In this document: in pieces, positions 5,090 to 53,177 of the stretch
Layout: each line of letters begins with the position of its first letter
Numbering within the stretch: position 1 is the stretch's first letter
The notes under the pieces: model-generated
What the model was told of the DNA's origin: nothing
Database searches by the model: none
Seen by the model: the letters and a program-made list of their open reading frames with translations, nothing else
Program-made: the position numbers and the translations under genes
Source of the DNA: an uncultured Gammaproteobacteria bacterium
GTDB taxonomy: Bacteria > Patescibacteriota > Patescibacteriia > Magasanikbacterales > UBA922
Direction of reading: 5' to 3'
Assembly: GCA_964522435.1 (NCBI GenBank)
Contig: CAZFUL010000001.1
Span: 117,075-181,074 of the forward strand
DNA: 64,000 nt

Positions 5090-5255
5090 GTTTCGTTATC
5101 GTCGTATTTCATAACAGCAGCTATTGCCTGTTATTATGAAAACCGACGAGTCGTGTGTTACGACTTACGGTCCAGCGGCATTCCTGCCGCGAGCTGCTAT
5201 AACTGACCCAAGCAGTGTAAATAAATGGGTCCCCGTGGCATGAAGGAGAATACCC

Positions 5256-5516
5256 ATGCCCAATCCCGGTGAAACCCCCAGCACCCCTGCCACCACCTCC
5301 ATGGTGGCGCCCGTCCAGCCGGCCGCCGAGGTGCAGCCGGATCTGGCGTCTGTCGCCCCGGCCGAAGAGCCCCCCACCGTCACGGCGGTGGCCTCTGATA
5401 CCGACGGTAACGGGCTCACCGACCGCGTCGTCATGACCGGGGGGGGGATCATCCCCCTGGGAATCGCGGGAGGGGGGTCCCGTCCCGATCGTCCCCGGAT
5501 GCGCGGTAGCAACTAG
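5256..5516 (+). CDS. Possible small Pro/Ala/Gly-rich protein in a very GC-rich islet (uncertain coding)
   Basis: AAGGAG lies 8 nt upstream of the ATG. The region is over 70% GC and has long ORFs in several frames, so the coding call is weak. Confidence 0.2.
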   Translation: MPNPGETPSTPATTSMVAPVQPAAEVQPDLASVAPAEEPPTVTAVASDTDGNGLTDRVVMTGGGIIPLGIAGGGSRPDRPRMRGSN

Positions 5517-5789
5517 CCCCTCGGCGGGACCTCTTTATATGTACGCGTTCTGCGTATAAAGAGTTCATCTTCTGAACGCAGCACCTGGCCGGTCGCGCTT
5601 TTATAAGCGACCCTGCACAAGCGCTTGACTGTCATCCTCTGACATTCGCGCGACCGGCCCCACAAAAAAGTACATCAATAGTGGTGTGCTTTTTTGTTTT
5701 TATGAGGAATACACTGATATGTAACCAAATTGAATTAAAGGAAAAATAATGATAGTCTAACAAATGAAATTGTATTTAATCGTATTATT

Positions 5790-12070: not shown

Positions 12071-12124
12071 TAATTGAATCGTTATTATGACGAAATTTTT
12101 GAAAAGAGAGGGGGTGACAGAGAT

Positions 12125-12638: not shown

Positions 12639-15466
<2,828 letters not shown>

Positions 15467-18785: not shown

Positions 18786-18876
18786 TGGCGGAAGGTGAGG
18801 GATTCGAACCCTCGATACCCTTTCAGGTATACCACCTTTCCAAGGTGGCGCACTCGACCAACTATGCGAACCTTCC
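18786..18876 (-). tRNA. tRNA-Ser (anticodon GGA), class II with long variable arm, CCA encoded
   Basis: Manual cloverleaf: acceptor GGAAGGT/ACCTTCC, D-stem GCA/TGC, anticodon stem CCACC/GGTGG with loop TTGGAAA, variable arm ATACC-TGAAA-GGGTAT, T-arm GAGGG-TTCGAAT-CCCTC. Confidence 0.85.
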
Positions 18877-19241
18877 GTAAGTGTGACTAAGACTATCACA
18901 AAAAGGGAGCAAAATCAACTCCAAGACAGCTGCTTTTAGGCGGTGATTTTTATTGTTGAAGAATAGGGGAGAATTTGGTAGGATGGGGGAAGGTATATTC
19001 CCTCGCAAAAGCCGTCGAGTTAGTATTCGGAGCTACTGTGTAGTCGTTAAAATGTATAATGATTTCGTATAAGAATGAGTTATCTGAAATATTCCTTTTC
19101 TTTTCCGACGATAGTCGGTTGTTTTAAAAATTTTCAAATTTCTTTTTCCAATGGGGGGTTCCTATTGGAAAAATTATTTTATAGGGGAATAAAGAGGTGT
19201 CCCTCCGTATAATCGGCGGGACGATTATCTAAAATATAAAC

Positions 19242-20048
19242 ATGATTCCACCAAACTATAAAAGCTACTTTGAAATAAACCACTCTAATATTGAACGAGT
19301 GCAAATCTTTTTAAGTAGCAAATATATTTTCACTATCGGGATTTACAAAAAGGAAATGGGATTTTACATTGATTTTCCTAAATTTAACAAGTCAAACACG
19401 ACAGTTGCAAAATATATATTGCCCAAAGGACAAAGCTATATTGAAAAACTTGATCCCACGGCAACCGAACAAAAAAATATTTGTCCGAAATTAAGTTTTC
19501 ATGAATCAGGCTGGGTACTACTATCCAAGAGCGGATTTTTCTTTGATAAAACAATATCTCGCCAAAAAACCAATGATTCAATATTTAAAAATGATGGTAC
19601 GCACGTATTTACCATATCATTGCAAAATCCTAATTTTCTTCCCGACGAACCTCCTGCGATGAAAACACGCACCCGTGATATTGCATTACCGTCTTCTCCA
19701 CTTCCTAATGCAATCAAATTCGTAGGAAATTTATGGAAAAAGAGTGATCTTCAAGAAAGTTTTAAAGAATTTGGAATGCTAAAAAATGAAACTGAGTATC
19801 CCATAATATGGCCACGCAACGATGGAAGTAATTTGGGTGATATTGTGTTCATATTAAAATTTTGCCACTTAGTAGATTCAGAACCACTTTATTTGAGTGT
19901 CCGATGTATGATTATTCCAATTATGGATAAAGAATATTCAAAAGGAACTTTATTGACGTTGATGAGTGGCTTCATTTTTGGTGATGTGATCAATACTGAA
20001 AAAGAGACTGATTTCATCAGTTTTATTGCAAAAAGAGAACGAAATTGA
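19242..20048 (+). CDS. Hypothetical protein (268 aa), first gene of the defence island
   Basis: ATG ORF with no recognisable motif. Lies between tRNA-Ser and the HTH/methyltransferase genes. Confidence 0.5.
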   Translation: MIPPNYKSYFEINHSNIERVQIFLSSKYIFTIGIYKKEMGFYIDFPKFNKSNTTVAKYILPKGQSYIEKLDPTATEQKNICPKLSFHESGWVLLSKSGFFFDKTISRQKTNDSIFKNDGTHVFTISLQNPNFLPDEPPAMKTRTRDIALPSSPLPNAIKFVGNLWKKSDLQESFKEFGMLKNETEYPIIWPRNDGSNLGDIVFILKFCHLVDSEPLYLSVRCMIIPIMDKEYSKGTLLTLMSGFIFGDVINTEKETDFISFIAKRERN

Positions 20049-20100
20049 CATAAAGTAGGCAGAAGAGTAACCTACATTAAAACATATACATTATATTGGT

Positions 20101-20310
20101 ATGCCAAATACAAAAAATACTATTGCAAAAAACATTAAACGTTTGCGAACTGAACAGCAATTATCGCAGGATCGTTTATCAAAATTAGCCGACCTTTCTT
20201 TGAATACGATTGTTACTGTTGAAAGTGGTGCGAATGAAAATCCCACAATCGATACACTAGTAAAAATTGCATCTGCTTTCGGTGTTGGTGTAGATGATTT
20301 AATGAAATGA
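20101..20310 (+). CDS. XRE-family HTH transcriptional regulator (69 aa), possibly a controller for the adjacent R-M genes
   Basis: HTH_3 pattern IKRLRTEQQLSQDRLSKLADLSLNTIVTVESG. Stop is 2 nt before the next ORF. Confidence 0.75.
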   Translation: MPNTKNTIAKNIKRLRTEQQLSQDRLSKLADLSLNTIVTVESGANENPTIDTLVKIASAFGVGVDDLMK

Positions 20311-20311
20311 T

Positions 20312-20980
20312 ATGGCCAACCAGATCATTTCAAAAAAACGTGTCACAGATCATGGTGAAGTGTTTACTTCTGAGCGAGAAGTGAATGCTATGCTGGATCT
20401 TGTAAAACAGGAAACAGAACGTATAGAATCTCGTTTTCTGGAACCTGCGTGTGGTACAGGTAATTTTTTGGATCCAATTCTTAGAAGAAAACTAGAAGTT
20501 ATAAGTAAGCGATATAAAAAAAGTCAGTTGGAATTTGAAAGAAACGGTGTCGTTACGATTGGGAGTATTTACGGTGTCGATATTTTACATGACAATGTCG
20601 TAGAGTGTAGAAACAGGTTGTTTGGTATCTTTGATTCTTGCTATACTGAATTGTATAAGAAAAAATGCACAGATGAATATCGTCGTGTTATACGTTTTAT
20701 TTTGGAGAGAAATATTTTACTTGGAGATGCACTAACACTCAAGACAGTGGGAAGTAAATCAGAGCCAATCGTATTTTCTGAGTGGTCTCTTGTGAGAGGG
20801 AGTGATATCAAACGTAGAGATTATGCCTTTGCTGAATTGATTCCAAATCAATCAAAAGAAAGTACATTATTTACTACAACACAAGTGTCCGATACAGGCT
20901 CTCCTGTATTTATACCAGAACCAAAAACTGAATTTCCTTTGACGCATTTTCTAAAATTACCGTATGAGACTACCCACTAA
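20312..20980 (+). CDS. N6-adenine methyltransferase N-terminal module only (motif X GEVFTS and motif I EPACGTGNFL, no NPPY): truncated paralog or accessory subunit
   Basis: Motifs read from the translation. Overlaps the full methyltransferase by 17 nt. Confidence 0.5.
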   Translation: MANQIISKKRVTDHGEVFTSEREVNAMLDLVKQETERIESRFLEPACGTGNFLDPILRRKLEVISKRYKKSQLEFERNGVVTIGSIYGVDILHDNVVECRNRLFGIFDSCYTELYKKKCTDEYRRVIRFILERNILLGDALTLKTVGSKSEPIVFSEWSLVRGSDIKRRDYAFAELIPNQSKESTLFTTTQVSDTGSPVFIPEPKTEFPLTHFLKLPYETTH

Positions 20981-22469
20981 CTACAATCCAGACGTACTCA
21001 CATGTTTGGCGAACTTGAGTAACGACGAGGTATTTACACCTCCTAGTTTGGTCAATGAGATTCTCGATCTTTTACCAAAAAAAATTTGGAAAAATAAACA
21101 TGCTAAATTTCTTGATCCTGTGACTAAAACAGGCGTATTTCTCAGAGAAATAGCAGCTCGATTGATTGATGGTCTTGAAAAAGAGATACCAGACAGACAA
21201 GAACGAATCAATCATATCTATACCAATCAGCTCTACGGTATTGCAATTACAGAACTCACTGCACTGCTTGCACGACGAAGTGTGTACTGCTCCAAAATAG
21301 CAAACGGAAAATACTCTATCTGTACGGAATTTACAGACGAACAAGGAAATATCCGTTTCAACAGGGTAGAGCATGAGTGGCAAGGAGAAAAATGTCGATA
21401 CTGTGGAGCAAGTAAATCAGAATATGATAGAGAAGATGCACTCGAAACACACGCCTATGAGTTTATTCATACCGATGATCCAAATAACTTGTATAACAAT
21501 ATGAAATTTGATGTCATCATTGGAAATCCACCGTATCAATTGAGTGACGCTGGACACGGTAGAAGTGCAAGTCCTATCTATCATAAGTTTATTGAGCAAG
21601 CGAAAAAGATGAATCCAAGGTATTTGACGATGATTATTCCTGCTCGTTGGTTTGCTGGTGGAAAAGGGCTTGATGAATTTCGTTCTGAAATGCTCGGTGA
21701 TAAGCGTATCCGAAGAATGGTAGACTTTGAAAATTCAAATGATGTATTTTCTGGTGTTGATATTGCTGGTGGTATTTGTTATTTCCTTTGGGATAGGGAT
21801 AATACGGGACTGTGTGAAGTAACTAATTTTATCAATGGTAAAGTAGAAAGTTCTTTGCGATATCTTGATGAGTTTCCAATTTTTATCCGTCATAGTAACG
21901 CAATTCCGATTATCAAAAAAGTGCTTGCAAAAAAAGAAAATGGTGGTAAGAATTTGAGTTCTGTGGTTTCTTCTCGAAAACCATTTGGTCTCCCCACAAA
22001 CTATCCACCAAAAAATTCTGGTGTACCTTGTTGGTTTATCCAAAAAATAGGTCTTAAATACGCAAGTAAAAAAGACGTTATCGATGATGTGGGGTTGTTG
22101 GATAAATGGAAATTGTTAATTCCTCCTGCTCCTATTGCTGGACAAACTGATTTTTCTAAACCAGTAGGCTTTTATTATGATGGAAATGTAAAAATAGCGA
22201 AACCGGGTGAGTGTTGTACTGAATCTTTTATTGTGGGTGGTGCTTTTGATACTAAAAAAGAAGTAGAATCGTTCAAAACATATTTGTTTACAAAAATTGT
22301 TCGATTTTTACTTTTACAAACAGTTGTATCCCAACATGTCACTAAAGATAAATTTATTTTTATACCAGATATCGGCAAATATGAGGGTGTTTTTACAGAT
22401 GAAATGTTATGTAAGCGATGGGGTATAACAAAAGACGAATGGAAGTTTATTGATTCACGCATTAAATAG
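20964..22469 (+). CDS. N6-adenine DNA methyltransferase, gamma-class, Eco57I-like
   Basis: Motif X EVFTPPSLVNEILDLL, motif I FLDPVTKTGVFL and motif IV NPPY (VIIGNPPYQ). C-terminal Eco57I-like region. Confidence 0.8.
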   Translation: MRLPTNYNPDVLTCLANLSNDEVFTPPSLVNEILDLLPKKIWKNKHAKFLDPVTKTGVFLREIAARLIDGLEKEIPDRQERINHIYTNQLYGIAITELTALLARRSVYCSKIANGKYSICTEFTDEQGNIRFNRVEHEWQGEKCRYCGASKSEYDREDALETHAYEFIHTDDPNNLYNNMKFDVIIGNPPYQLSDAGHGRSASPIYHKFIEQAKKMNPRYLTMIIPARWFAGGKGLDEFRSEMLGDKRIRRMVDFENSNDVFSGVDIAGGICYFLWDRDNTGLCEVTNFINGKVESSLRYLDEFPIFIRHSNAIPIIKKVLAKKENGGKNLSSVVSSRKPFGLPTNYPPKNSGVPCWFIQKIGLKYASKKDVIDDVGLLDKWKLLIPPAPIAGQTDFSKPVGFYYDGNVKIAKPGECCTESFIVGGAFDTKKEVESFKTYLFTKIVRFLLLQTVVSQHVTKDKFIFIPDIGKYEGVFTDEMLCKRWGITKDEWKFIDSRIK

Positions 22470-22477
22470 TTTTTTGT

Positions 22478-24994
22478 ATGATCAATCAAACTTTTTTCCC
22501 GCTTCGTCCAGAAGCTAAACCAACAATATATGTGTACAGATTCAAAGGTGTTAATACGCATGAAGGTCTTCTGAAAATTGGATATACTACGAGAAATGCT
22601 AAAGATCGTATCGCTGAACAGCTCACTACGAGTCGCCTTGAGCATGAAATTATTCTTGAAGAATCGGCGATGAGAAATGATGGTACTGCGTTTAGTGATC
22701 ACGATGTACATAGATATTTACGAAAAAACAATATTGAGCATGTAAATGGTGAGTGGTTCCGCTGTACGCTCAAAGATGTGAAATCTGCACTTGTAGCTAT
22801 TAAGTCCGGTGCCTTGAATGTAGAAAATAGAACACAGACTTTTGGTCTTCGCCCAGAACAAGAAAAGGCTATAGAAAAAACAATTACCTATTTCAAAAAT
22901 GTTAAAAAAGAAGGTGATAATAAAACACCACACTTCTTGTGGAATGCAAAAATGCGTTTTGGGAAAACATTTACTTCGTACCAGCTTGCAAAGAAAATGA
23001 ATTGGAAACGAGTACTCGTACTCACATTTAAGCCAGCAGTACAAAATGCGTGGGAAGAGGATCTCAAATCCCATGTTGATTTTGAAGGGTGGCAGTTTAT
23101 CTCACCAAATAGTCTCTCATACGAAGACGCTGATAAAGATAAACCACTTATTTGTTTTGGTTCATTTCAAGATTATCTGGGAAGAAACAAAAGTACAGGT
23201 GGTATTAAAACCAAAAATGAATGGGTACACACAACAAATTGGGACTGTGTCATCCTCGACGAGTACCACTATGGAGCGTGGAGAGAAAACGCAAAAGACT
23301 TGTTTGAGGCTGAAGAAAAACGTGTACAGCAAGATGAAGAGGGGGAAGGGCTTGAGTACTTTAGTGAAAGTGAAATGCCTATTACTACGGGGGCGTATCT
23401 GTATCTGTCGGGTACACCGTTCCGTGCGATTGCATCTGGTGAATTTATCGAAGAGCAAATTTTTAACTGGACATATTCAGATGAACAGCGTGCCAAAGAG
23501 CTGTGGCAAGGGGAGAATAACCCCTACGCATCACTACCTCGCATGGTGATGATGACCTATCAATTGCCCGATACTATTCGTGAAATTGCAATGGGTGGAG
23601 AGTTCAACGAGTTTGATCTCAACCTCTTTTTTTCAGCAGATGGGAAAGAAGAGCAAGCTCGCTTTACCTATGAAGATGAAGTTCAGAAATGGCTTGATCT
23701 GATTCGTGGGTCGTTTCAAGAGACAACAATTGATAACTTGAAACTTGGTGCAAAAAAACCACCACTTCCATTTTCTCATGCTCCGTTGCTGAGTGTATTG
23801 ACTCACACATTTTGGTTTTTACCGAGTGTGTCCTCTTGTTATGCGATGAAGAATCTACTCCAATCGAGACAAAACAAATTTTATAATGACTATAAAATCA
23901 TAGTAGCCGCAGGTAACAAAGCAGGGCTTGGTGCAGATGCACTCGAGCCTGTAGTCAAGGCGATGACACCTCCGCTTGAAACAAAAACAATTACACTCTC
24001 ATGTGGAAAATTAACGACGGGTGTTTCGGTAAAACCATGGACGGGTATTTTTATGTTGCGAAATTCTTCTAGTCCTGAAACATATTTTCAAGCCGCTTTT
24101 CGTGTACAGACACCATGGACGATCAAAAATCCAGACGGTAAGTCTCCTGATGAAGAAATGATACTCAAAAATGAGTGCTATGTGTTCGATTTTGCACCTG
24201 ATCGCGCGCTCCGACAGATTGCTGATTATAGTTGCCGTTTGAGTGTAGGGGACAAGAACCCAGAACAGAAAGTAGCAGAGTTTATCCATTTTTTGCCCGT
24301 TCTTGCGTATGATGGGAGTGCGATGAAACAGATTGATGCGGCTGGTATCTTGGATATGGCGATGAGTGGAACGACAGCGACACTGCTCGCTCGTCGTTGG
24401 GAAAGTGCCCTACTTGTAAACGTCGACAACTATACACTCAAACGCTTGATGGACAATGAAGATGCGATGAACGCCTTGATGAATATCGAGGGATTCCGCA
24501 GTCTCAATGCTGATATTGAAACGATTATCAACAAGTCAGAGGCTGTCGAAAAAACAAAAAAAGAAGCAAATGATAGAGAACTCACCAAAAAAGAAAAACA
24601 AGAACTCTCTGAGCAAGAAAAAGAGTATAAGATCGTGCGTAAACAGATTCAAGAGAAACTCATCAAGTTTGCTACTCGTGTGCCTGTTTTCATGTATCTG
24701 ACAGATTATCGTGAGAGAACTCTCAAAGATGTGATCACCCAATTGGAGCCTGGACTATTCAAAAAGGTCACTGGTTTAAGTGTGAAAGACTTTGAACTGC
24801 TAGTAAGTCTCAATGTGTTCAATAGTGCCCTCATGAACGATGCTGTATATAAATTTAAGCGATACGAAGACGCTAGTCTTAGTTATGCTGGTATCAGTAA
24901 GCACGAAGGAGAAAGTATTGGTCTGTACGACACTGTGATTCAACGAAGTGAGTTTGATCAGGTGTTTGAGAATACGGTAAAGTTGCAAACGTAA
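22478..24994 (+). CDS. T5orf172 (GIY-YIG-like) domain fused to ResIII / SF2 DEAH helicase (838 aa): putative restriction/translocase subunit
   Basis: N-terminus IYVYRF...GLLKIGYTTRNAKDRIAEQL...GEWF (T5orf172 hallmarks). LRPEQEKAI with Walker A FGKTFTS and motif II ILDEYHYGA. About 400-aa C-terminal region of unknown function. Confidence 0.75.
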   Translation: MINQTFFPLRPEAKPTIYVYRFKGVNTHEGLLKIGYTTRNAKDRIAEQLTTSRLEHEIILEESAMRNDGTAFSDHDVHRYLRKNNIEHVNGEWFRCTLKDVKSALVAIKSGALNVENRTQTFGLRPEQEKAIEKTITYFKNVKKEGDNKTPHFLWNAKMRFGKTFTSYQLAKKMNWKRVLVLTFKPAVQNAWEEDLKSHVDFEGWQFISPNSLSYEDADKDKPLICFGSFQDYLGRNKSTGGIKTKNEWVHTTNWDCVILDEYHYGAWRENAKDLFEAEEKRVQQDEEGEGLEYFSESEMPITTGAYLYLSGTPFRAIASGEFIEEQIFNWTYSDEQRAKELWQGENNPYASLPRMVMMTYQLPDTIREIAMGGEFNEFDLNLFFSADGKEEQARFTYEDEVQKWLDLIRGSFQETTIDNLKLGAKKPPLPFSHAPLLSVLTHTFWFLPSVSSCYAMKNLLQSRQNKFYNDYKIIVAAGNKAGLGADALEPVVKAMTPPLETKTITLSCGKLTTGVSVKPWTGIFMLRNSSSPETYFQAAFRVQTPWTIKNPDGKSPDEEMILKNECYVFDFAPDRALRQIADYSCRLSVGDKNPEQKVAEFIHFLPVLAYDGSAMKQIDAAGILDMAMSGTTATLLARRWESALLVNVDNYTLKRLMDNEDAMNALMNIEGFRSLNADIETIINKSEAVEKTKKEANDRELTKKEKQELSEQEKEYKIVRKQIQEKLIKFATRVPVFMYLTDYRERTLKDVITQLEPGLFKKVTGLSVKDFELLVSLNVFNSALMNDAVYKFKRYEDASLSYAGISKHEGESIGLYDTVIQRSEFDQVFENTVKLQT

Positions 24995-25259
24995 TACTTT
25001 GTAGAATATTTTGAAATAATCCATATTAGAGAAGCTTAAAGACATAACCGATGGTACAGAAAAAAGGGATTTAAGTGAATTACATGAGACTATCAAGCCA
25101 AAGTTCCCCAGCTATATCCCTTGGATGATGGCAGCCATTTTAACTGCTGTAATTTTTTGTATAATTTTCTTAATCTATTATTGCAACAAGTAAAATTTTC
25201 ATTACATCCGACAACAGAGACTTTGTTGTTCAATTTATTAAAATAAAGGATAAAAAATC

Positions 25260-25640
25260 TTAGCCTTTCTTGAAATCGTTTCTTCCGACAATAAGTGAAA
25301 TCAATATTGCTGCAGATAATATGAGTCGATACCATACTGTGGTGCCTACTTGTGACAGATCGAGTAGGTGTGTTACTAACCCAAGGCTTACAAGTATTAA
25401 ACCAAGTGTATAAGCCCAATGTTTTGCTTTGAGCAAAAAACAGCCGATCAAAATACCTATAACGGCGGATATAATGTTGATGATTTGGGTCAACTCATTC
25501 GCCGTAGCTTGGAGACTTTCTGGTTCTATGGATGAGGGAGAACTTGTTAGATTTGTGAACGTGACAATCAAATTAATCAATCCTGCTATCATGAAGAGGC
25601 CTGCAGCAACTTTGATAGGGGAGGAAAGAGTATTACTCAT
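25260..25640 (-). CDS. Hypothetical small polytopic membrane protein (126 aa)
   Basis: Hydrophobic segments. ATG ORF on the minus strand between the helicase gene and the mrr cassette. Confidence 0.5.
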   Translation of the reverse strand: MSNTLSSPIKVAAGLFMIAGLINLIVTFTNLTSSPSSIEPESLQATANELTQIINIISAVIGILIGCFLLKAKHWAYTLGLILVSLGLVTHLLDLSQVGTTVWYRLILSAAILISLIVGRNDFKKG

Positions 25641-25676
25641 ATGGGTATAGTTACTATCTGCATTTTTTATATATAA

Positions 25677-25765
25677 ATCATAGCAAATATAGTACGAAAC
25701 ACAAACCTTTGCTATACTTTTTTTAGTATATCCTAGTATTATGCCCCCCTCAATTCCCTACACCC
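25677..25765. repeat. Direct repeat copy 1 (about 89 bp) flanking the mrr cassette
   Basis: Near-identical to 26748-26838 with 1-2 mismatches. Contains the palindromic tatac-T8-gtata element and the first codons (MPPSIPYTL) of a truncated copy of the YgjP-like gene. Confidence 0.8.
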
Positions 25766-26653
25766 TTAAGTTTCTTCAAAAAAGTCTTCGTCTATTTCTT
25801 TTACTTCGTATTTATTTTTAACTTGTAACCCCACTCCATATTCGTGCATTAAATCAACAAGTTTTTTGCCGTCAATGAGTATTATCGAATGATGTGCCTC
25901 TCTTGCTTTGTGTATGGCAGATTCATCGAAAGAAGAAGTCGTGACAAAAACTCCTTTACTTGTATCTCCGCTCATTGCTCCTATAAAATTACGAATCTCT
26001 TTTTCTCTTATTTTATTTTCATTATAACGCTTAGCTTGGATATATATTTTTGCTAGGCCTAATTTGTCTTCGTTAATAATACCATCTATTCCTCCATCAC
26101 CACTTTTCGAAGTTTCGATAAAATCTCCGTAGCCCATCTTATTTAATAGTAGCAAAACAACTTTTTCAAAATAATAAGGGTCTATTTCTTTAAGTCTTTC
26201 GAGAAGCTCATTTTTGACTTGCTTTTCAATAGCACTAAATCCCGAGTCAATCATATCTTGCGGAGAAGCATTTTCATCTTCCAAATCTATTTCAGAATCT
26301 TTTTCTTCTTTTTTTGCTTCCCTATGCGCTTGAAAATCAGGATCGTTAATTAAATCTGATAATGTTAAATTTCCACTCTTTACAACTTTTAAACCTTTTT
26401 CCGATATTTTTACCATCGCTCTTTCTGGTTGTTCAATCATTTTTGCCTGTTTGAGATATGCTTTTCCCCAGCCAATTCTATTTAATATTAGAATGTCTCC
26501 ACTCTTCGTCTTTTTTTCTAATAATTCTTCGCTCAAATTTGAATAATATTCATCCCGAACACGCTTTCGTAATTCGTTGTAATGTAAAATTTGACCATCG
26601 CTCAGTACGTTTAATATTGGTATAAATGTTTCGTGATATTTTGGTAGATCCAT
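25766..26653 (-). CDS. mrr: Mrr-family restriction endonuclease (type IV, modification-dependent)
   Basis: N-terminal winged-helix Mrr_N and C-terminal Mrr_cat motifs GDGGIDGI...IQAKRY. 295 aa. Confidence 0.8.
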   Translation of the reverse strand: MDLPKYHETFIPILNVLSDGQILHYNELRKRVRDEYYSNLSEELLEKKTKSGDILILNRIGWGKAYLKQAKMIEQPERAMVKISEKGLKVVKSGNLTLSDLINDPDFQAHREAKKEEKDSEIDLEDENASPQDMIDSGFSAIEKQVKNELLERLKEIDPYYFEKVVLLLLNKMGYGDFIETSKSGDGGIDGIINEDKLGLAKIYIQAKRYNENKIREKEIRNFIGAMSGDTSKGVFVTTSSFDESAIHKAREAHHSIILIDGKKLVDLMHEYGVGLQVKNKYEVKEIDEDFFEET

Positions 26654-26747
26654 ATTTTTGAGTTAATTTATCAATATTTTGCTTTTTTAAAAAATTTTTA
26701 TCATAAAAAAAGCGTATTTAATATAACTTACTTTTACCCAACCTTAT

Positions 26748-26838
26748 AAATCATAGCAAATATAGTACGAAACACAAACCTTTGCTATACTTTTTTTAGT
26801 ATATCCTAGTATTATGCCCCCCTTAATTCCCTACACCC
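26748..26838. repeat. Direct repeat copy 2, carrying the promoter and start of the YgjP-like gene
   Basis: See copy 1. The ATG of ORF 26814 lies inside the repeat. Confidence 0.8.
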
Positions 26839-27383: not shown

Positions 27384-28127
27384 ATGACCATGCAACTGTT
27401 GGGTGTCTTTTTTGTTGGCCTCGCCGCGAGTTTTTTAAGCGGTATTGCGGGAGGTGGCGCTGGGCTTATTACCATTCCCTTATTAATATTTTTAGGAATT
27501 GATCCAAAAATTACCGCAGCAACAACTACCTTTGGGGGATTAGGATTGGGGATAGGCGCGTTGTTTCGCTTTCGTAAGGAAAAAAATTTACGAAAACAAT
27601 ATAGTAAACCTTTCACTCTTATTTCTATATTTGCCGGATTGTGTGGACCCTTTATATTATTTTTCTTAGAGAGTAGTTGGGTAAAAATCGTTGTGGGTTC
27701 TATTATATTACTTATTGTTCCTTTGTTTTTGTTAAAGAAAAAGATTGGAACAGAACAAAAAGAAACAAGTCAAAGAAAAAAAATTATTGGCTATCTCTTG
27801 TATGCGTTGCTGTTAACCTTGCAAGTGGCCTTTGGCTCTGGGATTGGCATTGCTATCATTTTTGTCTTGGTGGCATTTTTTGGGCTTACCTTAATAGAAA
27901 CAAGTGCAACATTACGGTTACCACAACTGGTTTCTTCTTTTATCTCTCTGTTTTTATATGGCTATCAAGGATTATTAGATTATCGTTATGGAATAGTGCT
28001 TATGCTTGCGATGATTTTGGGAGGGTATCTGGGTTCTCATGTGGCAATAAAAGCGGGTAATGCGGTTATTCGCTGGGTTTTTGCTGCTATGGCAGCGATC
28101 CTCGCGGTAATCTTGTTGATTCAATAA
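27384..28127 (+). CDS. TauE/SafE (TSUP) family membrane transporter
   Basis: GIAGGGAGLITIPLLIFLG repeat motif. Polytopic. Confidence 0.75.
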   Translation: MTMQLLGVFFVGLAASFLSGIAGGGAGLITIPLLIFLGIDPKITAATTTFGGLGLGIGALFRFRKEKNLRKQYSKPFTLISIFAGLCGPFILFFLESSWVKIVVGSIILLIVPLFLLKKKIGTEQKETSQRKKIIGYLLYALLLTLQVAFGSGIGIAIIFVLVAFFGLTLIETSATLRLPQLVSSFISLFLYGYQGLLDYRYGIVLMLAMILGGYLGSHVAIKAGNAVIRWVFAAMAAILAVILLIQ

Positions 28128-28131
28128 AACA

Positions 28132-28164
28132 AAAACCCTATACCGTTCTGGTACAGGGTTTTTG
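28132..28164 (+). terminator. Rho-independent terminator (ccctgtacc.../ggtacaggg + T-run)
   Basis: aaaaaccctataccgttctggtacagggttttt. Confidence 0.55.
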
Positions 28165-28238
28165 AATTGCTCCGACGGGGGTGGGGAACTGCCGAAGCAA
28201 TTCATCCGCGTCGTCGGGGCGGAACTCCTTGTTTGTCG

Positions 28239-28760
28239 TCAGGGGGTCCCTGTATTGTACGGGTCAAGGAAGATGAACCGTTCTTCTTTGGGATAGTACC
28301 CTGGGTATACCGTCCAGACCGTGAAGTGCCATTGCTGGTTGCGCTCTTTGCGCATCCGAACTTTCATGGTGAGTTGGGTAGTTTTTGGAGCCAGGATGAG
28401 CTCCTTGGGGAGGACGGGAATCCCGGATGACGGCCTTCTCAGCTGCTGTTGCAAGTATGGCTGGGTGGGGACACGGGTCACCCAGCCAATATGGCGGGGA
28501 AGACTCAGGGTGATCGAATGATCTTCTTTACCCCGTTCAATTGCGCTGCGCAGGGCCGCGCCCAAGTGTGCAGCAACCTCTTGGTCATCGACGCAGGCTT
28601 GCAGGTTTGGCCAGGCAGAAATATTTCCGGCCAGTGGAGCGCCTGCCAGACGGAAATGGTCAGTTTGTACCTGGACTATGGTCTCGTGGGGAAAGATGAC
28701 CTTGACCACCGGTGCGCCGTCCGGTCCCATAGGAAGGATCAGATATTTGGCGAAAAGCAT
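28239..28760 (-). CDS. Hypothetical protein (173 aa) in GC-rich islet C
   Basis: RBS aaggaa upstream of the ATG on the minus strand. GC about 55%. The + strand ORFs here are shadow ORFs. Confidence 0.45.
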   Translation of the reverse strand: MLFAKYLILPMGPDGAPVVKVIFPHETIVQVQTDHFRLAGAPLAGNISAWPNLQACVDDQEVAAHLGAALRSAIERGKEDHSITLSLPRHIGWVTRVPTQPYLQQQLRRPSSGIPVLPKELILAPKTTQLTMKVRMRKERNQQWHFTVWTVYPGYYPKEERFIFLDPYNTGTP

Positions 28761-28772
28761 GAACGTTTCCTT

Positions 28773-29375
28773 TCAGTTGTTGTGTTTTTTGTTCATGTGG
28801 CGAATTGCGATTGCCACACTGCCGTTGCCCATCACCCCGATGAGGATGGGGTGTACGAGGGATACCAGTTGTTGCTCTGGCTGCCAGTGGATGACCAGGT
28901 TCGTAGTCATGATCATATACGACACCACCGCAATGTACCAGGGCAAGATGTTTTCTTTGTTGCCTTTGAGTACACCGAGGACGGTGGGAATGAACGATAG
29001 CACATATACTGCTTGAAGCAGCAAGTTGGCCATTACATCATCACCGCTGGTACGCCAGTAGTAGACAATGACGCCGGCGATTGCCAGAATCATCCATTCT
29101 GTTGGCCCGATTTTGCTAAAGCGCTTGTTGAACGCTGCGTAGCCAAGGATCAAAAGCGATCCGAGGCATGCTGCGCCAGTTGCTGCCCAGCGGCTCAGGT
29201 CACCATCTACCACTTTGAAATAGGTGACTGAGTTGACCACATTGACGCTGCCCCAAATTGCCCAGGTTGCGGCGTTTGGGGTGATATTGCCCTTGATCAC
29301 GTAGTACAGGTACATGCTGAGCAAGAGTAGCACACCCGACATTGAAATGAGTGAAAGAATATCAATGAGCGCCAT
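28773..29375 (-). CDS. Hypothetical polytopic membrane protein (about 200 aa) in GC-rich islet C
   Basis: RBS aaggag 6 nt upstream of the internal ATG (MALIDIL...). The longer ORF to 29429 was rejected as an upstream extension. Confidence 0.45.
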   Translation of the reverse strand: MALIDILSLISMSGVLLLLSMYLYYVIKGNITPNAATWAIWGSVNVVNSVTYFKVVDGDLSRWAATGAACLGSLLILGYAAFNKRFSKIGPTEWMILAIAGVIVYYWRTSGDDVMANLLLQAVYVLSFIPTVLGVLKGNKENILPWYIAVVSYMIMTTNLVIHWQPEQQLVSLVHPILIGVMGNGSVAIAIRHMNKKHNN

Positions 29376-29427
29376 TGCAGGCTCCTTTGTCTGACGTTTT
29401 TCTTGGCAGAGACTAGAATAGAACATC

Positions 29428-30288
29428 ATGATTTTAATCAGTTGTCAATATAGCGTATGTATGGGAAAATATTCGTATATGCGTGATACCACACACAACA
29501 GAGCATGGGTACGAAACATCGGTATTGTCTGTTTTATTTTTATCCAATTCTTGGGAATTGCCATTAATCTTATAAAGCAGCAAGATTGTTATAAACAAGA
29601 GCAGTCCATAGAGCAACAGTTTTCCAGCAGGCAAGAAGGAGATGTTCGTGTATTAAAAGAAGATATGCTCAATCATTTTGATTGTGGCATGTCGTTTGGC
29701 GTGCCTGCGCCTATTGTCTATGTCAAAGATGATACAGGCAGTGTTGGGGTATTGCCTCAAAGTATTGTGTTTAATATTGTGCTCTATGCTGCCGTTTTTT
29801 TTGCGGTTATGCGTGGGTATGCCTTGTTCAAACAACAGCGCTATACGCGTGTAGGTGTGGAAAGCATATTGTGTATTGTGGGATTGTTTATTGCTGCTAT
29901 ATTATTGCAATTATCGTTTCGGTATAGTGGGCTTATGTATACCGGAGGGCCTGTAATACGATTTCCTTCGTTGATACCATCAACACAGTCGTTTGTGGAT
30001 ATAGGGGCTGAGTATGTGTTTTATGTTCTTACTATGCTTGCCGCAGGATTTTTTTCTGTATATACCTGGTATGGTTATGCGGCAATTATTTTTTTATATC
30101 TTGTATTATTTGGAATCGTTGTATACCGGATACAAAAAATATATATACCACTCTCATATAAAAAATTGTTGACCTGGGGAATTGTTGGATTTATTTTTTT
30201 CTATCTTTTTATGTCGTATAGTGCGTTTATTACGCAAGGGGTGGTTGATCTGAATTGTTTACATAACAATAGTGGTTGTGACGGCTAG
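29428..30288 (+). CDS. Hypothetical polytopic membrane protein
   Basis: ATG ORF with multiple hydrophobic segments. Start uncertain. Confidence 0.5.
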   Translation: MILISCQYSVCMGKYSYMRDTTHNRAWVRNIGIVCFIFIQFLGIAINLIKQQDCYKQEQSIEQQFSSRQEGDVRVLKEDMLNHFDCGMSFGVPAPIVYVKDDTGSVGVLPQSIVFNIVLYAAVFFAVMRGYALFKQQRYTRVGVESILCIVGLFIAAILLQLSFRYSGLMYTGGPVIRFPSLIPSTQSFVDIGAEYVFYVLTMLAAGFFSVYTWYGYAAIIFLYLVLFGIVVYRIQKIYIPLSYKKLLTWGIVGFIFFYLFMSYSAFITQGVVDLNCLHNNSGCDG

Positions 30289-31916: not shown

Positions 31917-32010
31917 AATCATCGTCGTCGCGTGGACCTCCGATAACATTCGTTAGGTATTGTTATCGTTGAGGTCCGCTATATCGCCACATTGGGCGAT
32001 ATTTTTTTTC
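31917..32010 (+). ncRNA. Candidate small structured RNA, unit 2 (structure conserved with sequence changes)
   Basis: aatcatcgtcgt box, then hairpin ggacctccgataac...gttatcgttgaggtcc, then atatcgcc-cacatt-gggcgatat plus T8. Confidence 0.4.
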
Positions 32011-32134
32011 CGTACATTATGGGAAGAGAAGGACAGACGATAGCAATATCTGATAGTAGCCTCTTCTCATAATCAGTAGCAATGCTGTTGCTGAACGTGG
32101 GAAGAGTAACGCTGTTGTATAGGAGGACGTTGTC

Positions 32135-32950
32135 ATGGCACCATACTTTTCTTGGCTGGTAGCGTCTGGAGTTATTGAACGAACAATGCCCGATGGAGGG
32201 GTGGTTCATGTTTCCACCTTGCCTGACGCAGCGGTGGCAGCTGCGGGCTGGTGGGGGACGGAAAATCTGCGTCCCGAGTATTGCTTGAGCGGCGGCTGCT
32301 TGTTTGATGCGCGTTGGCAGCTGCAGTTTCCTGCACAAAACAAAGGACACCAAGGCGCTGTTCGTACCTTGTCCTTGCCGCGTGAGCGCGATGATGCGTA
32401 TGCGCGTTTGAAGAAAGGACAAACGCCACTTGCCCTGCACCTGCCGAAAGGGCCTGGCGTGTATCAGCAGACGCTCATTCGCTGGCAAGCAGCGGTGTTT
32501 CGTCGCTTGCAGCCCACACAGATTCTGTACCATCTTCCGACCGATGAATATCGTGTCTACATTCAAGAGATGGAACAACATCTGGGCTATGCCGTTCCTG
32601 CTGCCTACACACAGCTTGACCAGCTCGCTGTCTCTATTCGTGCGCTTATGGTGCGGGAGTTTGGGGCTGCTCTCATGGCACGTGTTCGCTTCGTGCGTCC
32701 TATGCACACGCATGGAGTGAAAGATACGACACAGTCCTACCTGCATCCCTACTTGTTTCCGGAGTTGTATGGGATCACTCCTGCCAATACCGTTGGTGTG
32801 GAAGATCTTGTTGAACTCCGTCTTGCCTACGAAGCATGGCGCATGCGCGGACACCAGATTTCGGTGTACGCAGCTGCCCTTGCCCTGCCTCCTCCCTACG
32901 CAGATAAAACGCTGCGGCCTGGGGAATTCACGACCGTTGAGCTGATGTGA
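32135..32950 (+). CDS. Hypothetical protein (271 aa) in GC-rich islet D, strong SD
   Basis: taggagga lies 8 nt upstream of the ATG. GC is well above the flanks. The antisense ORF 31979-32854 is judged a shadow. Confidence 0.5.
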   Translation: MAPYFSWLVASGVIERTMPDGGVVHVSTLPDAAVAAAGWWGTENLRPEYCLSGGCLFDARWQLQFPAQNKGHQGAVRTLSLPRERDDAYARLKKGQTPLALHLPKGPGVYQQTLIRWQAAVFRRLQPTQILYHLPTDEYRVYIQEMEQHLGYAVPAAYTQLDQLAVSIRALMVREFGAALMARVRFVRPMHTHGVKDTTQSYLHPYLFPELYGITPANTVGVEDLVELRLAYEAWRMRGHQISVYAAALALPPPYADKTLRPGEFTTVELM

Positions 32951-48925: not shown

Positions 48926-49070
48926 TTGTGAACCTAAGAATAATTGATTGGAATTATAGTCTATGAAGAATTGAAGCAATGGAAAAAACTAAGAGAATCT
49001 TATTGACATAATTATCATTTTATGATATTGATCTCTGATCAATCAAATTTCTACCAGAGGAGGTACTCCT

Positions 49071-49463
49071 GTGCTGAATAAAATCCTGCTCATTGAAGAC
49101 GACATCGAGACAGGGATCTTGATCCGGGGGGGGCTGCAGGGCGTAGAGGATGAAAACTGGGAACCCCTGTATGACGTGTTCTACGCAACCAACCTGAACG
49201 ATGCACGGTTGCGGCTCGACAAAGGGGACATCGACCTCTTGATATCCGACACCTGCGTCGATAGCAAGAACCGGCCTGATGCCCACGTGCTGATCGAGGA
49301 GGTACGGCAACGCTACCCCAATATGCCGATTCTCGGAATGTCTAGTTCTGACTTCTACCGAGATATCATGTTGGAGGCGGGATGCAACCGCTTCTACACC
49401 AAATCACCCCGTGACCTGCAGTTCGCAGGGCTGCTGGAATTAGTGCAGGAGCTTCTGCCTTGA
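49071..49463 (+). CDS. Stand-alone CheY-like receiver domain protein, GTG start, in GC-rich islet F
   Basis: gaggagg lies 7 nt before the GTG. ILLIEDD, phospho-acceptor D in DLLISD, and T/K positions are conserved. GC is about 55% against AT-rich flanks. Confidence 0.6.
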   Translation: MLNKILLIEDDIETGILIRGGLQGVEDENWEPLYDVFYATNLNDARLRLDKGDIDLLISDTCVDSKNRPDAHVLIEEVRQRYPNMPILGMSSSDFYRDIMLEAGCNRFYTKSPRDLQFAGLLELVQELLP

Positions 49464-49564
49464 CGTAGCGACCCTCCATTTGTGAAGACTCAAAGGCAAG
49501 CGCGAGTATAAACGCTTCCAATCCCCATCCTAAAATTATTTTGAAAAAAAGTAGTTTGAGGATA

Positions 49565-49598
49565 AAAAATCACCGTTAAAACGGTGGTTTTTTATTTC
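49565..49598 (+). terminator. Bidirectional rho-independent terminator (caccgtt-aaaa-cggtg flanked by A- and T-runs)
   Basis: Seen in sequence. Confidence 0.6.
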
Positions 49599-49632
49599 TG
49601 TGACCCCGGTGGGGAATCTCACTGCTCGTGAC
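49599..49632 (-). pseudogene. Degenerate partial copy of the tRNA-Lys 3' end (variable loop, T-arm, acceptor 3' strand)
   Basis: tgtgaccccggtggggaatctcactgctcgtgacca versus the intact gtgaccccggtggggatcgaacccacgacca. About 30 nt of homology with a 7-nt insertion and substitutions. Confidence 0.45.
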
Positions 49633-49787
49633 CAGCTAAAGCGCTGGTCACTGCGCTTTGAGAAACCTTCGGGTTTCTCAATACTCATCCTCCGCAAGTA
49701 AGGGGGCGCTGCCCCCTTACCATCCCCCAATTCGATCCCCCTCGACCCAAAAATAAAACCCCCACATAAGTGGAGGTTTTATTTTAG

Positions 49788-49860
49788 TGACCCCGGTGGG
49801 GATCGAACCCACGACCATTGGCTTAAAAGGCCACTGCTCTACCGGCTGAGCTACAGGGTC
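49788..49860 (-). tRNA. tRNA-Lys (anticodon UUU); CCA not encoded
   Basis: Manual cloverleaf: acceptor GACCCTG/CGGGGTC, D-arm GCTC-AGCCGGTA-GAGC, anticodon loop CTTTTAA, T-arm GTGGG-TTCGATC-CCCAC. Confidence 0.85.
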
Positions 49861-52595: not shown

Positions 52596-53177
52596 ATGCC
52601 TCTCGATAAAAAATATCTGAATCAACTCCGAAATACCTTGCATGATCAAGCGCTAATGCGCCGAGAAATTATTAAGCAAGGTGGGGATGCGTTACACCAT
52701 GCAAAGCGCGCAATTTTTGCCTTGCATCGCGATCAGCTTGGTGAGGCAAAAAAGAAACTCGATGAGGCACTCAGTTTATTGAAACAATTATCCAAGCGGT
52801 ATGGGAAACAGCCAGAGATGCATACGGAAGGATCATATAAAGCAGCACTCGAAGAATATGTGGAAGCAGTATTGCTGTACCAATTTGTAGAAAAAAGAAG
52901 CGTGGGAAAAATTACCTCCATTGCCGTGCCGACCGATGTGTATTTGGCAGGGTTGTCTGATGTGCCCGGAGAATTATATCGCTACGCTATTCGCGCAGCA
53001 ACCGCAGGGGATACAAAAACGGTACAGGATTGTGAGGCTATGTCGAGTGATATATTAGCGGAACTTATTGAATTTGATGTGACCAAATATCTTCGCACCA
53101 AATTTGATCAAGCAAAAGCCGCCCATCAAAAATTAGAAATTGTCTTATACGAATTAGCGATTCGCGATAAAAAATAA
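52596..53177 (+). CDS. Translin-family-like protein (tentative)
   Basis: Overall helical pattern resembling archaeal/bacterial translin. Based on recall only. Confidence 0.4.
   Translation: MPLDKKYLNQLRNTLHDQALMRREIIKQGGDALHHAKRAIFALHRDQLGEAKKKLDEALSLLKQLSKRYGKQPEMHTEGSYKAALEEYVEAVLLYQFVEKRSVGKITSIAVPTDVYLAGLSDVPGELYRYAIRAATAGDTKTVQDCEAMSSDILAELIEFDVTKYLRTKFDQAKAAHQKLEIVLYELAIRDKK

Follow-up and report, generated by a model that had tools for sequence, protein, structure and literature searches.

We analyzed a GC-rich islet at positions 49040 to 49790 of a 64,000-nucleotide stretch of bacterial DNA (assembly GCA_964522435.1, contig CAZFUL010000001.1, positions 117,075 to 181,074; hereafter the window, whose own numbering is used throughout), where a gene for a stand-alone receiver (REC/CheY-like) domain protein lies next to a tRNA-Lys locus. 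The receiver gene occupies 49071 to 49463 on the plus strand and encodes 130 amino acids (aa). Upstream of it are a putative promoter/operator block, TTATTGACATAATTATCATTtTATGATAT (49000 to 49028, plus strand), and the Shine-Dalgarno (SD) sequence GAGGAGG (49057 to 49063, plus strand). Downstream, an AT-rich 3′ spacer or untranslated region (UTR; 49484 to 49561, plus strand) with a small hairpin, GGCAAGCG...CGCTTCC (49495 to 49519), leads to a first bidirectional intrinsic terminator (terminator 1, 49562 to 49595; -16.2 and -12.3 kcal/mol on the two strands). Beyond it follow a decayed second copy of tRNA-Lys (49600 to 49651, minus strand), a zone of perfect hairpins, a second bidirectional intrinsic terminator (terminator 2, 49750 to 49785; -20.7 kcal/mol on the minus strand), and an intact tRNA-Lys(UUU) gene (49787 to 49860, minus strand), identified by ARAGORN and by Rfam (RF00005, 70.4 bits). 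The window genes outside this and other GC-rich islets were found to be housekeeping genes, among them those for SecDF, DnaG, RpoD, PilM, LigA, GatA, MraZ/RsmH, DnaB, RecR, and a Mur ligase. The DnaB protein is 70 to 76% identical to proteins named Candidatus Magasanikbacteria (Patescibacteria/Candidate Phyla Radiation [CPR]) and, judged by its sequence, the host is a Magasanikbacteria-like CPR bacterium.

A preliminary description, made from the sequence alone, had called the product of the receiver gene a stand-alone CheY-like protein with intact D-D...D...T/S...K positions, and its fold, its residues, and its profile matches all support this. The acidic pocket (E9, D10, and D11), the acceptor D60, and the residues C62, S91, C105, and K111 are present. 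In a 22-member family alignment, which omits a few longer proteins of 234 to 286 aa that were matched in two stretches, every member has D60 and S91, D10 and K111 are found in at least 90% of the members, and E9/D10/D11, D60, S91, and K111 align with the corresponding positions of receivers in the PDB. As a single sequence, the protein scored 22.2 bits against Pfam Response_reg (PF00072), short of the gathering score of 30.2. When a profile was built from the 22 aligned sequences, it matched solved receiver domains in the PDB with an E value of 1.6e-16, and we attribute the subthreshold Pfam score to divergence, not to a different fold. AlphaFold2 with the family alignment gave a (βα)5 fold with a predicted local distance difference test (pLDDT) score of 96.7, with β-strands at residues 3 to 8, 34 to 39, 56 to 60, 87 to 91, and 107 to 110 and helices at residues 12 to 23, 42 to 50, 71 to 81, 94 to 103, and 119 to 128. 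The alignment was needed for a good model, as the single sequence reached a pLDDT of 36 only. The top Foldseek matches in the PDB were all receiver domains (CheY4, TrrA, PhoP, VicR, and RcsB), with TM-scores of 0.7 to 0.8. The protein is thus a true response regulator of the single-domain kind, divergent in sequence, and its phospho-acceptor pocket is intact.

The family to which it belongs is small. An exhaustive HMMER search of 1.84 billion protein representatives returned only 27 matches with an E value below 1e-3, one of them 56% identical and the others 25 to 43% identical. Most of these proteins are stand-alone receivers of 107 to 143 residues that have D10, D60-x-C62, S91, G104, and K111 in common, and the Cys at D+2 (C62), at least 90% conserved, is a hallmark of the subfamily. 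Many members also carry AGC at the start of β5 (C105), where the closest relative has Val. A redox role of these cysteines is conceivable. The receiver protein had no match in phage records, plasmid records, or JGI metagenomes, and the only match in GTDB genomes was a 32%-identical protein in Bosea. No PADLOC defence family was matched by the receiver or by the other islet open reading frames (ORFs), and we found nothing specific in the literature on CPR two-component systems or on horizontal gene transfer in relation to GC content.

The receiver shares with CheY, Spo0F, DivK, and VemR/McvR the (βα)5 fold, the acidic pocket, the Asp at the end of β3, the Ser at the end of β4, and the Lys at the end of β5 and, like other single-domain response regulators, has no output domain. 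It differs from them in its strong divergence, the Cys at D+2, an insertion after helix 1, its CPR host, and its genomic surroundings: no histidine kinase is encoded by the scanned ORFs of the window or beside the distant family members, and we therefore regard the receiver as an orphan. D60 would most likely receive its phosphate from acetyl phosphate or from a kinase whose gene lies elsewhere. Single-domain response regulators work by protein-protein contacts (PMC8995066, PMC12802240), and since this receiver has no output domain, we propose that it acts by binding a partner protein or as a phosphate sink.

The gene has a full set of putative expression signals. The GTG start codon at 49071 lies 7 nucleotides (nt) after GAGGAGG, as had been described; the same SD sequence is kept in an orthologue on a related contig, L003, with a spacer of 5 nt. 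The promoter block contains TTGACA (49003 to 49008), which doubles as part of an extended -10-like element, TGaCATAAT (49004 to 49012), and the palindrome TATCAT-N3-ATGATA (49013 to 49027). This 29-nt block, TTATTGACATAATTATCATTnTATGATAT, is identical at 28 of 29 positions between the window and the related contigs L002 and L003, compared with an identity of only 67% for the coding sequences. It occurs once in the window, and the promoter motif had no match in viral contigs or JGI metagenomes. Transcription of the receiver gene is probably driven by a conserved AT-rich promoter that overlaps the 6-3-6 palindrome, probably a repressor site, and translation would start from the strong SD sequence and GTG. 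The hairpin in the 3′ spacer folds at -6.8 kcal/mol, and the spacer motif had no match in viral contigs. Terminator 1, about 100 bp beyond the end of the ORF, has 16-nt arms that are 94% complementary; a near-perfect bidirectional terminator is present where the preliminary description had placed one. As read from its sequence, it would end the receiver transcript on the plus strand and would have ended that of the decayed tRNA copy on the minus strand.

In composition, the receiver gene stands apart from its host, as had been noted from its GC content of about 55%. Its GC content is 0.545, with values of 0.61, 0.32, and 0.72 at the first, second, and third codon positions, a clean codon-position periodicity. 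The third-position value (GC3) of 0.715 compares with a mean of 0.321 (standard deviation, 0.053) for host ORFs (z = 7.5), and the GC content changes in sharp steps at 49057 and at about 49480. Its strong SD sequence, likewise flagged beforehand, is just as atypical: an SD core of at least 5 nt precedes 2 of 46 host ORFs (the start at 12074 and possibly that at 12675), in contrast to 4 of the 5 islet ORFs (Fisher p = 3e-4).

A 56%-identical receiver relative is encoded on short contigs (L002 to L005) from four independent ENA metagenome assemblies of related populations (ERZ2271402, ERZ2272275, ERZ2270788, and ERZ2227786), and these allowed us to compare the whole module. The relatives share the AT-rich promoter with its palindrome, GAGGAGG, GTG, the 3′ spacer, the bidirectional terminator, and the tRNA-Lys 3′ end. 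Identity between the window and L003 is 82% in the promoter and 5′ UTR, 67% in the coding sequence, 81% in the 3′ spacer, and 85% in the tRNA remnant, and the sequences beyond the remnant are unrelated. The stem of the L003 terminator differs in sequence, with the hairpin and its A and T runs retained. The L003 coding sequence is also GC rich (GC3, 0.70), and its third-position differences from the window gene are mostly exchanges between GC and AT. By the Nei-Gojobori method, the two orthologues are separated by a dS of 1.12 and a dN of 0.37, and the dN/dS of 0.33 indicates that the receiver gene is under purifying selection. Because the common ancestor of the two lineages, which are well separated, already carried the gene together with its flanks and the tRNA remnant, the gene is no recent arrival. 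The term islet, used in the preliminary description, therefore overstates its recency.

A plausible source of such a gene is suggested by the family member in L008, which has exactly the GC content of its own genome, 57.5%, making GC-rich relatives plausible donors. The gene would have entered before the split of the window and L003 lineages, probably from relatives that have a higher GC content and use SD sequences and to which the family seems native, and would since have been kept by purifying selection with only partial amelioration of its GC-rich codons. The equal GC3 values of the two lineages fit a parallel, incomplete amelioration from a GC-richer source.

The related contigs also differ structurally among themselves. 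Compared with the near-identical L003, L005 has a 78-bp deletion that takes out the promoter and palindrome (L003, 305 to 433; L005, 300 to 330). In L004, a rearrangement relative to L003 begins just past the 3′ piece of the tRNA-Lys remnant and removes the D-arm piece. After a common hairpin, there is an abrupt change, and L003 (from about 1170) and L005 (from about 1100) continue into divergent alleles of a convergent, GC-rich gene, the C termini of which share the motif LRADxAxVL...LKSP.

At the other end of the interval, what had been described as a tRNA-Lys fragment turned out to be the complete minus-strand gene at 49787 to 49860, and a separate, decayed copy is present in addition. The last 16 nt of tRNA-Lys, GTGACCCCGGTGGGGA (49787 to 49802), are repeated exactly and in the same orientation at 49600 to 49615, 187 bp apart; in 100 shuffles, two or more matches never occurred, and if the adjoining T run is counted, the repeat is 26 nt long with 92% identity. 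Neither this repeat nor terminator 2 had been noted in the preliminary description. The rest of the copy is badly decayed. Positions 49620 to 49627 read GAGCAGTG, the junction of the D stem and the anticodon stem, with the anticodon and T arms deleted, and the sequence up to 49651 consists of a degenerate D arm and 5′ acceptor. This part aligns colinearly to tRNA positions 1 to 29 through the segments GACC, TAGCT, GGT, and GAGCAGTG (shuffle p = 0.0125). The remnant in L003 has kept a different part, CAGCAGGTAGAGCA, which matches the D arm at 13 of 14 positions, and also part of the T stem (p = 0.005). Neither ARAGORN nor Rfam recognized the copy at 49600 to 49651, and we therefore regard it as a pseudogene. 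Because an attachment (att) site copy holds only sequence 3′ of the crossover, the D-arm remnants point to a whole second tRNA-Lys copy and not to an att duplication.

This copy resembles known tRNA pseudogenes left by tandem duplicates in its colinear acceptor, D arm, and 3′ end and in the presence of a terminator for each copy. Which parts of the tRNA survive differs between the two lineages, as independent decay predicts: the second copy would have decayed differently in each, losing its anticodon and T arms and keeping its 3′ 16 nt. Unlike in a typical decayed duplicate, in both lineages these 16 nt are flawless and the remainder of the copy is ruined, which is mildly suggestive of gene conversion or of use as a recombination site. 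Beyond the remnant, the layout would be read as about 100 bp of GC-rich hairpin DNA, then the terminator of the live tRNA-Lys gene, and then the live gene itself. We also considered TTCGATCCCC (49731 to 49740) as an inverted, T-arm-like remnant of a foreign tRNA or att site and rejected it, since 55 of 500 shuffles scored equally. No tRNA-derived repeat was found upstream of the receiver gene in the window or in L003, and with no such left-hand repeat, the receiver does not lie within a recognizable att-bounded island.

The hairpins between the two terminators are conspicuous. Folding z-scores were -9.0 for 49464 to 49800 on the plus strand and -8.2 for 49596 to 49790 on the minus strand, with no shuffle as stable, and of the nine perfect hairpins in the window whose stems measure 9 bp or more, three fall within 93 bp here. 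Hairpin A (gtgaccagc/gctggtcac, 49628 to 49651) has a 9-bp stem of -15.8 kcal/mol. Hairpin B (aaagcgc/gcgcttt, 49638 to 49659), an overlapping alternative to A, has a 7-bp stem of -9.2 kcal/mol; the two do share 49638 to 49651, and the preliminary description was right in calling them mutually exclusive. Hairpin 2 (ttgagaaacc-ttcg-ggtttctcaa, 49658 to 49681), a perfect 10-bp stem of -13.1 kcal/mol with a UUCG tetraloop, was also found as described. Hairpin 3 (gtaagggggc-gct-gcccccttac, 49698 to 49720), a perfect, GC-rich 10-bp stem of -17.7 kcal/mol, is likewise present; its loop is GCT on the plus strand, the earlier agc being the minus-strand reading. Unlike the host's terminators, the three perfect hairpins have no A or T tails. 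Hairpin A is built from the degenerate 5′ half of the pseudo-tRNA (GTGACCAGC/GCTGGTCAC). Hairpins 2 and 3 have no flanking T run and no counterpart in L003, neither the islet nor its hairpins have a second copy in the window, and 49464 to 49790 has no homologue in phage or plasmid records. An Rfam scan of the region at gathering and permissive settings found only tRNAs; the leader and small-RNA matches of the permissive scan were weak, far below threshold, and centered on the two terminators. Since the hairpins follow a strong terminator and face only the antisense side of the tRNA gene, there is nothing for them to regulate, and since they are boxed in by two bidirectional terminators, the zone is probably little transcribed.

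Taken together, we hold with moderate confidence that the interval 49040 to 49790 comprises two unrelated, adjoining things, an orphan receiver gene and the nonriboregulatory debris of a tRNA-Lys locus, the hairpins there being mainly the remains of a tRNA-Lys duplicate or integration hotspot. An attenuator, with hairpins A and B as an antiterminator/terminator pair setting the read-through past the receiver gene, had been suggested instead, and two overlapping perfect stems indeed exist, the one trait shared with intrinsic-terminator attenuators. This reading is very improbable to us. Hairpin B is 6 to 7 kcal/mol weaker than A and is swamped by it, with an equilibrium P(B) of 2e-5; it is followed by UUUGAG, not by a U run; and the site lies between terminator 1 and the antisense side of tRNA-Lys, where there is no gene for it to act on. 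The pair is not conserved in L003 or L005, L003 being unrelated beyond the tRNA remnant, no Rfam family matches it, and hairpin A is explained as tRNA debris. The zone thus differs from amino acid operon leaders and T-boxes in having no U tract, leader, downstream gene, conservation, or family match. A broader possibility, that 49616 to 49749 is a small structured RNA gene, or a DNA site for recombination or protein binding, retained because it has a function of its own, would account for the extreme folding z-scores on both strands and for the perfect stems, one with a C(UUCG)G tetraloop, and a predicted minus-strand fold closes the three hairpins by a long-range helix that uses the T-stem segment of the pseudo-tRNA. 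We nevertheless give it a low probability, because the sole promoter-like match is a 9-of-12 site within hairpin 2, the segment is boxed in by terminators and has no second copy in the window and no phage or plasmid homologue, and the L003 lineage has unrelated sequence there.

The 16-nt repeat could also be the scar of an integration. In that case, a tyrosine-integrase element would have inserted at the tRNA-Lys 3′ end, the live gene would have been regenerated from the element, most of the cargo would have been lost, and 49600 to 49615 would be the displaced far-end fragment, with 171 bp of GC-rich hairpin DNA and an element-borne terminator remaining. Islands in tRNA genes are delimited by a regenerated tRNA and a displaced fragment (PMC4383910), and the geometry here matches, with an intact tRNA-Lys and an exact, same-orientation copy of its 3′ 16 nt bounding foreign-looking GC-rich DNA; the structural variation among L003, L004, and L005 also sits at the remnant. 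We consider this history rather unlikely all the same. Unlike islands of the Islander type (PMC4383910), the 171 bp between the repeats contain no integrase or credible ORF, and the repeats do not enclose the GC-rich receiver gene. The scanned ORFs of the window included no integrase domain, and no phage, plasmid, or viral contig matched the tRNA end or the insert. The remnant is colinear into the D arm in both lineages, unlike a 3′-end att duplication, and in the window also retains the 5′ acceptor; it is, moreover, older than the split of lineages with a dS of about 1.1. As for the sharp GC steps, they could come from GC-rich stretches mis-joined from another organism's reads, and the preliminary description had itself allowed for an assembly artefact. 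Such a chimera is hardly credible, since the same junctions of AT-rich flank and GC-rich coding sequence recur in contigs of four other samples, the GC content of the ORF varies by codon position as it should in a gene, the ORF is subject to purifying selection, and promoter, SD sequence, and terminator are correctly positioned around it.

Several observations weigh against our reading of two adjoining but unrelated parts. The receiver sequence by itself misses the Pfam threshold (22.2 versus 30.2 bits), and a phosphodonor for D60 was not found among the window ORFs or beside the relatives. The part of the window pseudo-tRNA outside its 3′ end is only modestly significant alone (p = 0.0125). 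Hairpins 2 and 3, perfect 10-bp stems of which one has a UUCG tetraloop, are too good for chance and are not accounted for by this reading. The flanks of the gene (49000 to 49070 and 49484 to 49561; K ~0.2) are about 5-fold more conserved than the synonymous sites (dS ~1.1), which plain vertical descent would not give; cassette replacement or a raised mutation rate of the coding sequence could produce this contrast, and regulatory or UTR constraint or a faster GC-to-AT decay of the coding sequence are also possible. Finally, receiver genes are GC elevated and SD led in several other CPR genomes, a recurrence that hints at a property of the family and not at a single horizontal transfer.

This last point can be followed in the more distant homologues. 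They are preceded by AGGAGG in L006, by AGGAG in L008, and by GGAGG with a GTG start in L010, and their GC3 is above that of their neighbors in L006, L010, and L013. In L010 (a contig of GCA_028717285.1, 1 to 16384), six SD-led genes have a median GC3 of 0.63, compared with 0.53 in 14 SD-less genes (p = 0.0075), and 5 of the 6 are small ORFs with no Pfam match. One idea, which we put forward only tentatively and regard as unlikely, is that the receiver is one member of a class of genes in SD-poor Parcubacteria that are small, mostly orphan, and marked by high GC3 and a strong SD sequence. The evidence for such a class is the four islets in the window, the L010 pattern, and the SD-led receiver homologues in five lineages. 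In Parcubacteria, the anti-SD motif was found in only 48% of 16S genes (PMC9297842); no 16S gene lies within the window.

The three other GC-rich islets of the window, at 5100 to 5680, 28100 to 29430, and 32000 to 32950, peak at 75%, 64%, and 64% GC, respectively (100-nt windows), in a genome of 40% GC. Their ORFs, at 5256 to 5516 (plus strand, 86 aa), 28239 to 28760 (minus strand), 28773 to 29429 (minus strand), and 32135 to 32950 (plus strand, 271 aa), had no match in Pfam, NCBIfam, or PADLOC. GC3 is 0.63 to 0.82 in three of these four; it is 0.54 for 32135 to 32950 and 0.64 for the minus-strand frame that overlaps it. AGGAG or AGGAGG precedes the start of three of the four. On the CPR contigs L010, L006, and L013, the SD-led genes are GC3 raised and mostly orphan, and the SD-less genes are housekeeping genes of lower GC3. 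The receiver of L006 is present as a tandem pair of paralogues.

Elsewhere in the window, an AT-rich stretch (18786 to 26800; 29 to 37% GC) lies beside a tRNA-Ser(GGA) gene (18786 to 18876, minus strand), with the GC skew inverted at 25.6 to 26.8 kb. It carries restriction-modification genes, namely, an Eco57I-type methylase (20964 to 22469), a ResIII/T5orf172 Type IIG-like gene (22478 to 24994), and Mrr (25766 to 26653, minus strand), and thus resembles a defence island sited next to a tRNA gene. Positions 52596 to 53177 of this bacterial chromosome segment code for a protein of the Translin family (PF01997, E = 5e-18).

The receiver is a further divergent single-domain response regulator and the remnant a further tRNA pseudogene; both kinds are already known, and on their own they are useful for annotation and unsurprising. 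The locus shows a signalling protein retained under selection in a minimal, kinase-poor CPR genome, and its tRNA-Lys part documents structural churn at the strain level. If the gene class outlined above is real, its traits, long kept (dS > 1), would point to a separate SD-dependent translation regime or regulon or to a CPR-wide pool of mobile genes, and in the case of a mobile pool, the pseudo-tRNA-Lys 3′ end could be a landing site for variable GC-rich cargo. The recurring association of strong SD sequences and raised GC content in genomes whose core genes start without an SD sequence is a testable link that bears on translation initiation in Parcubacteria (PMC9297842).

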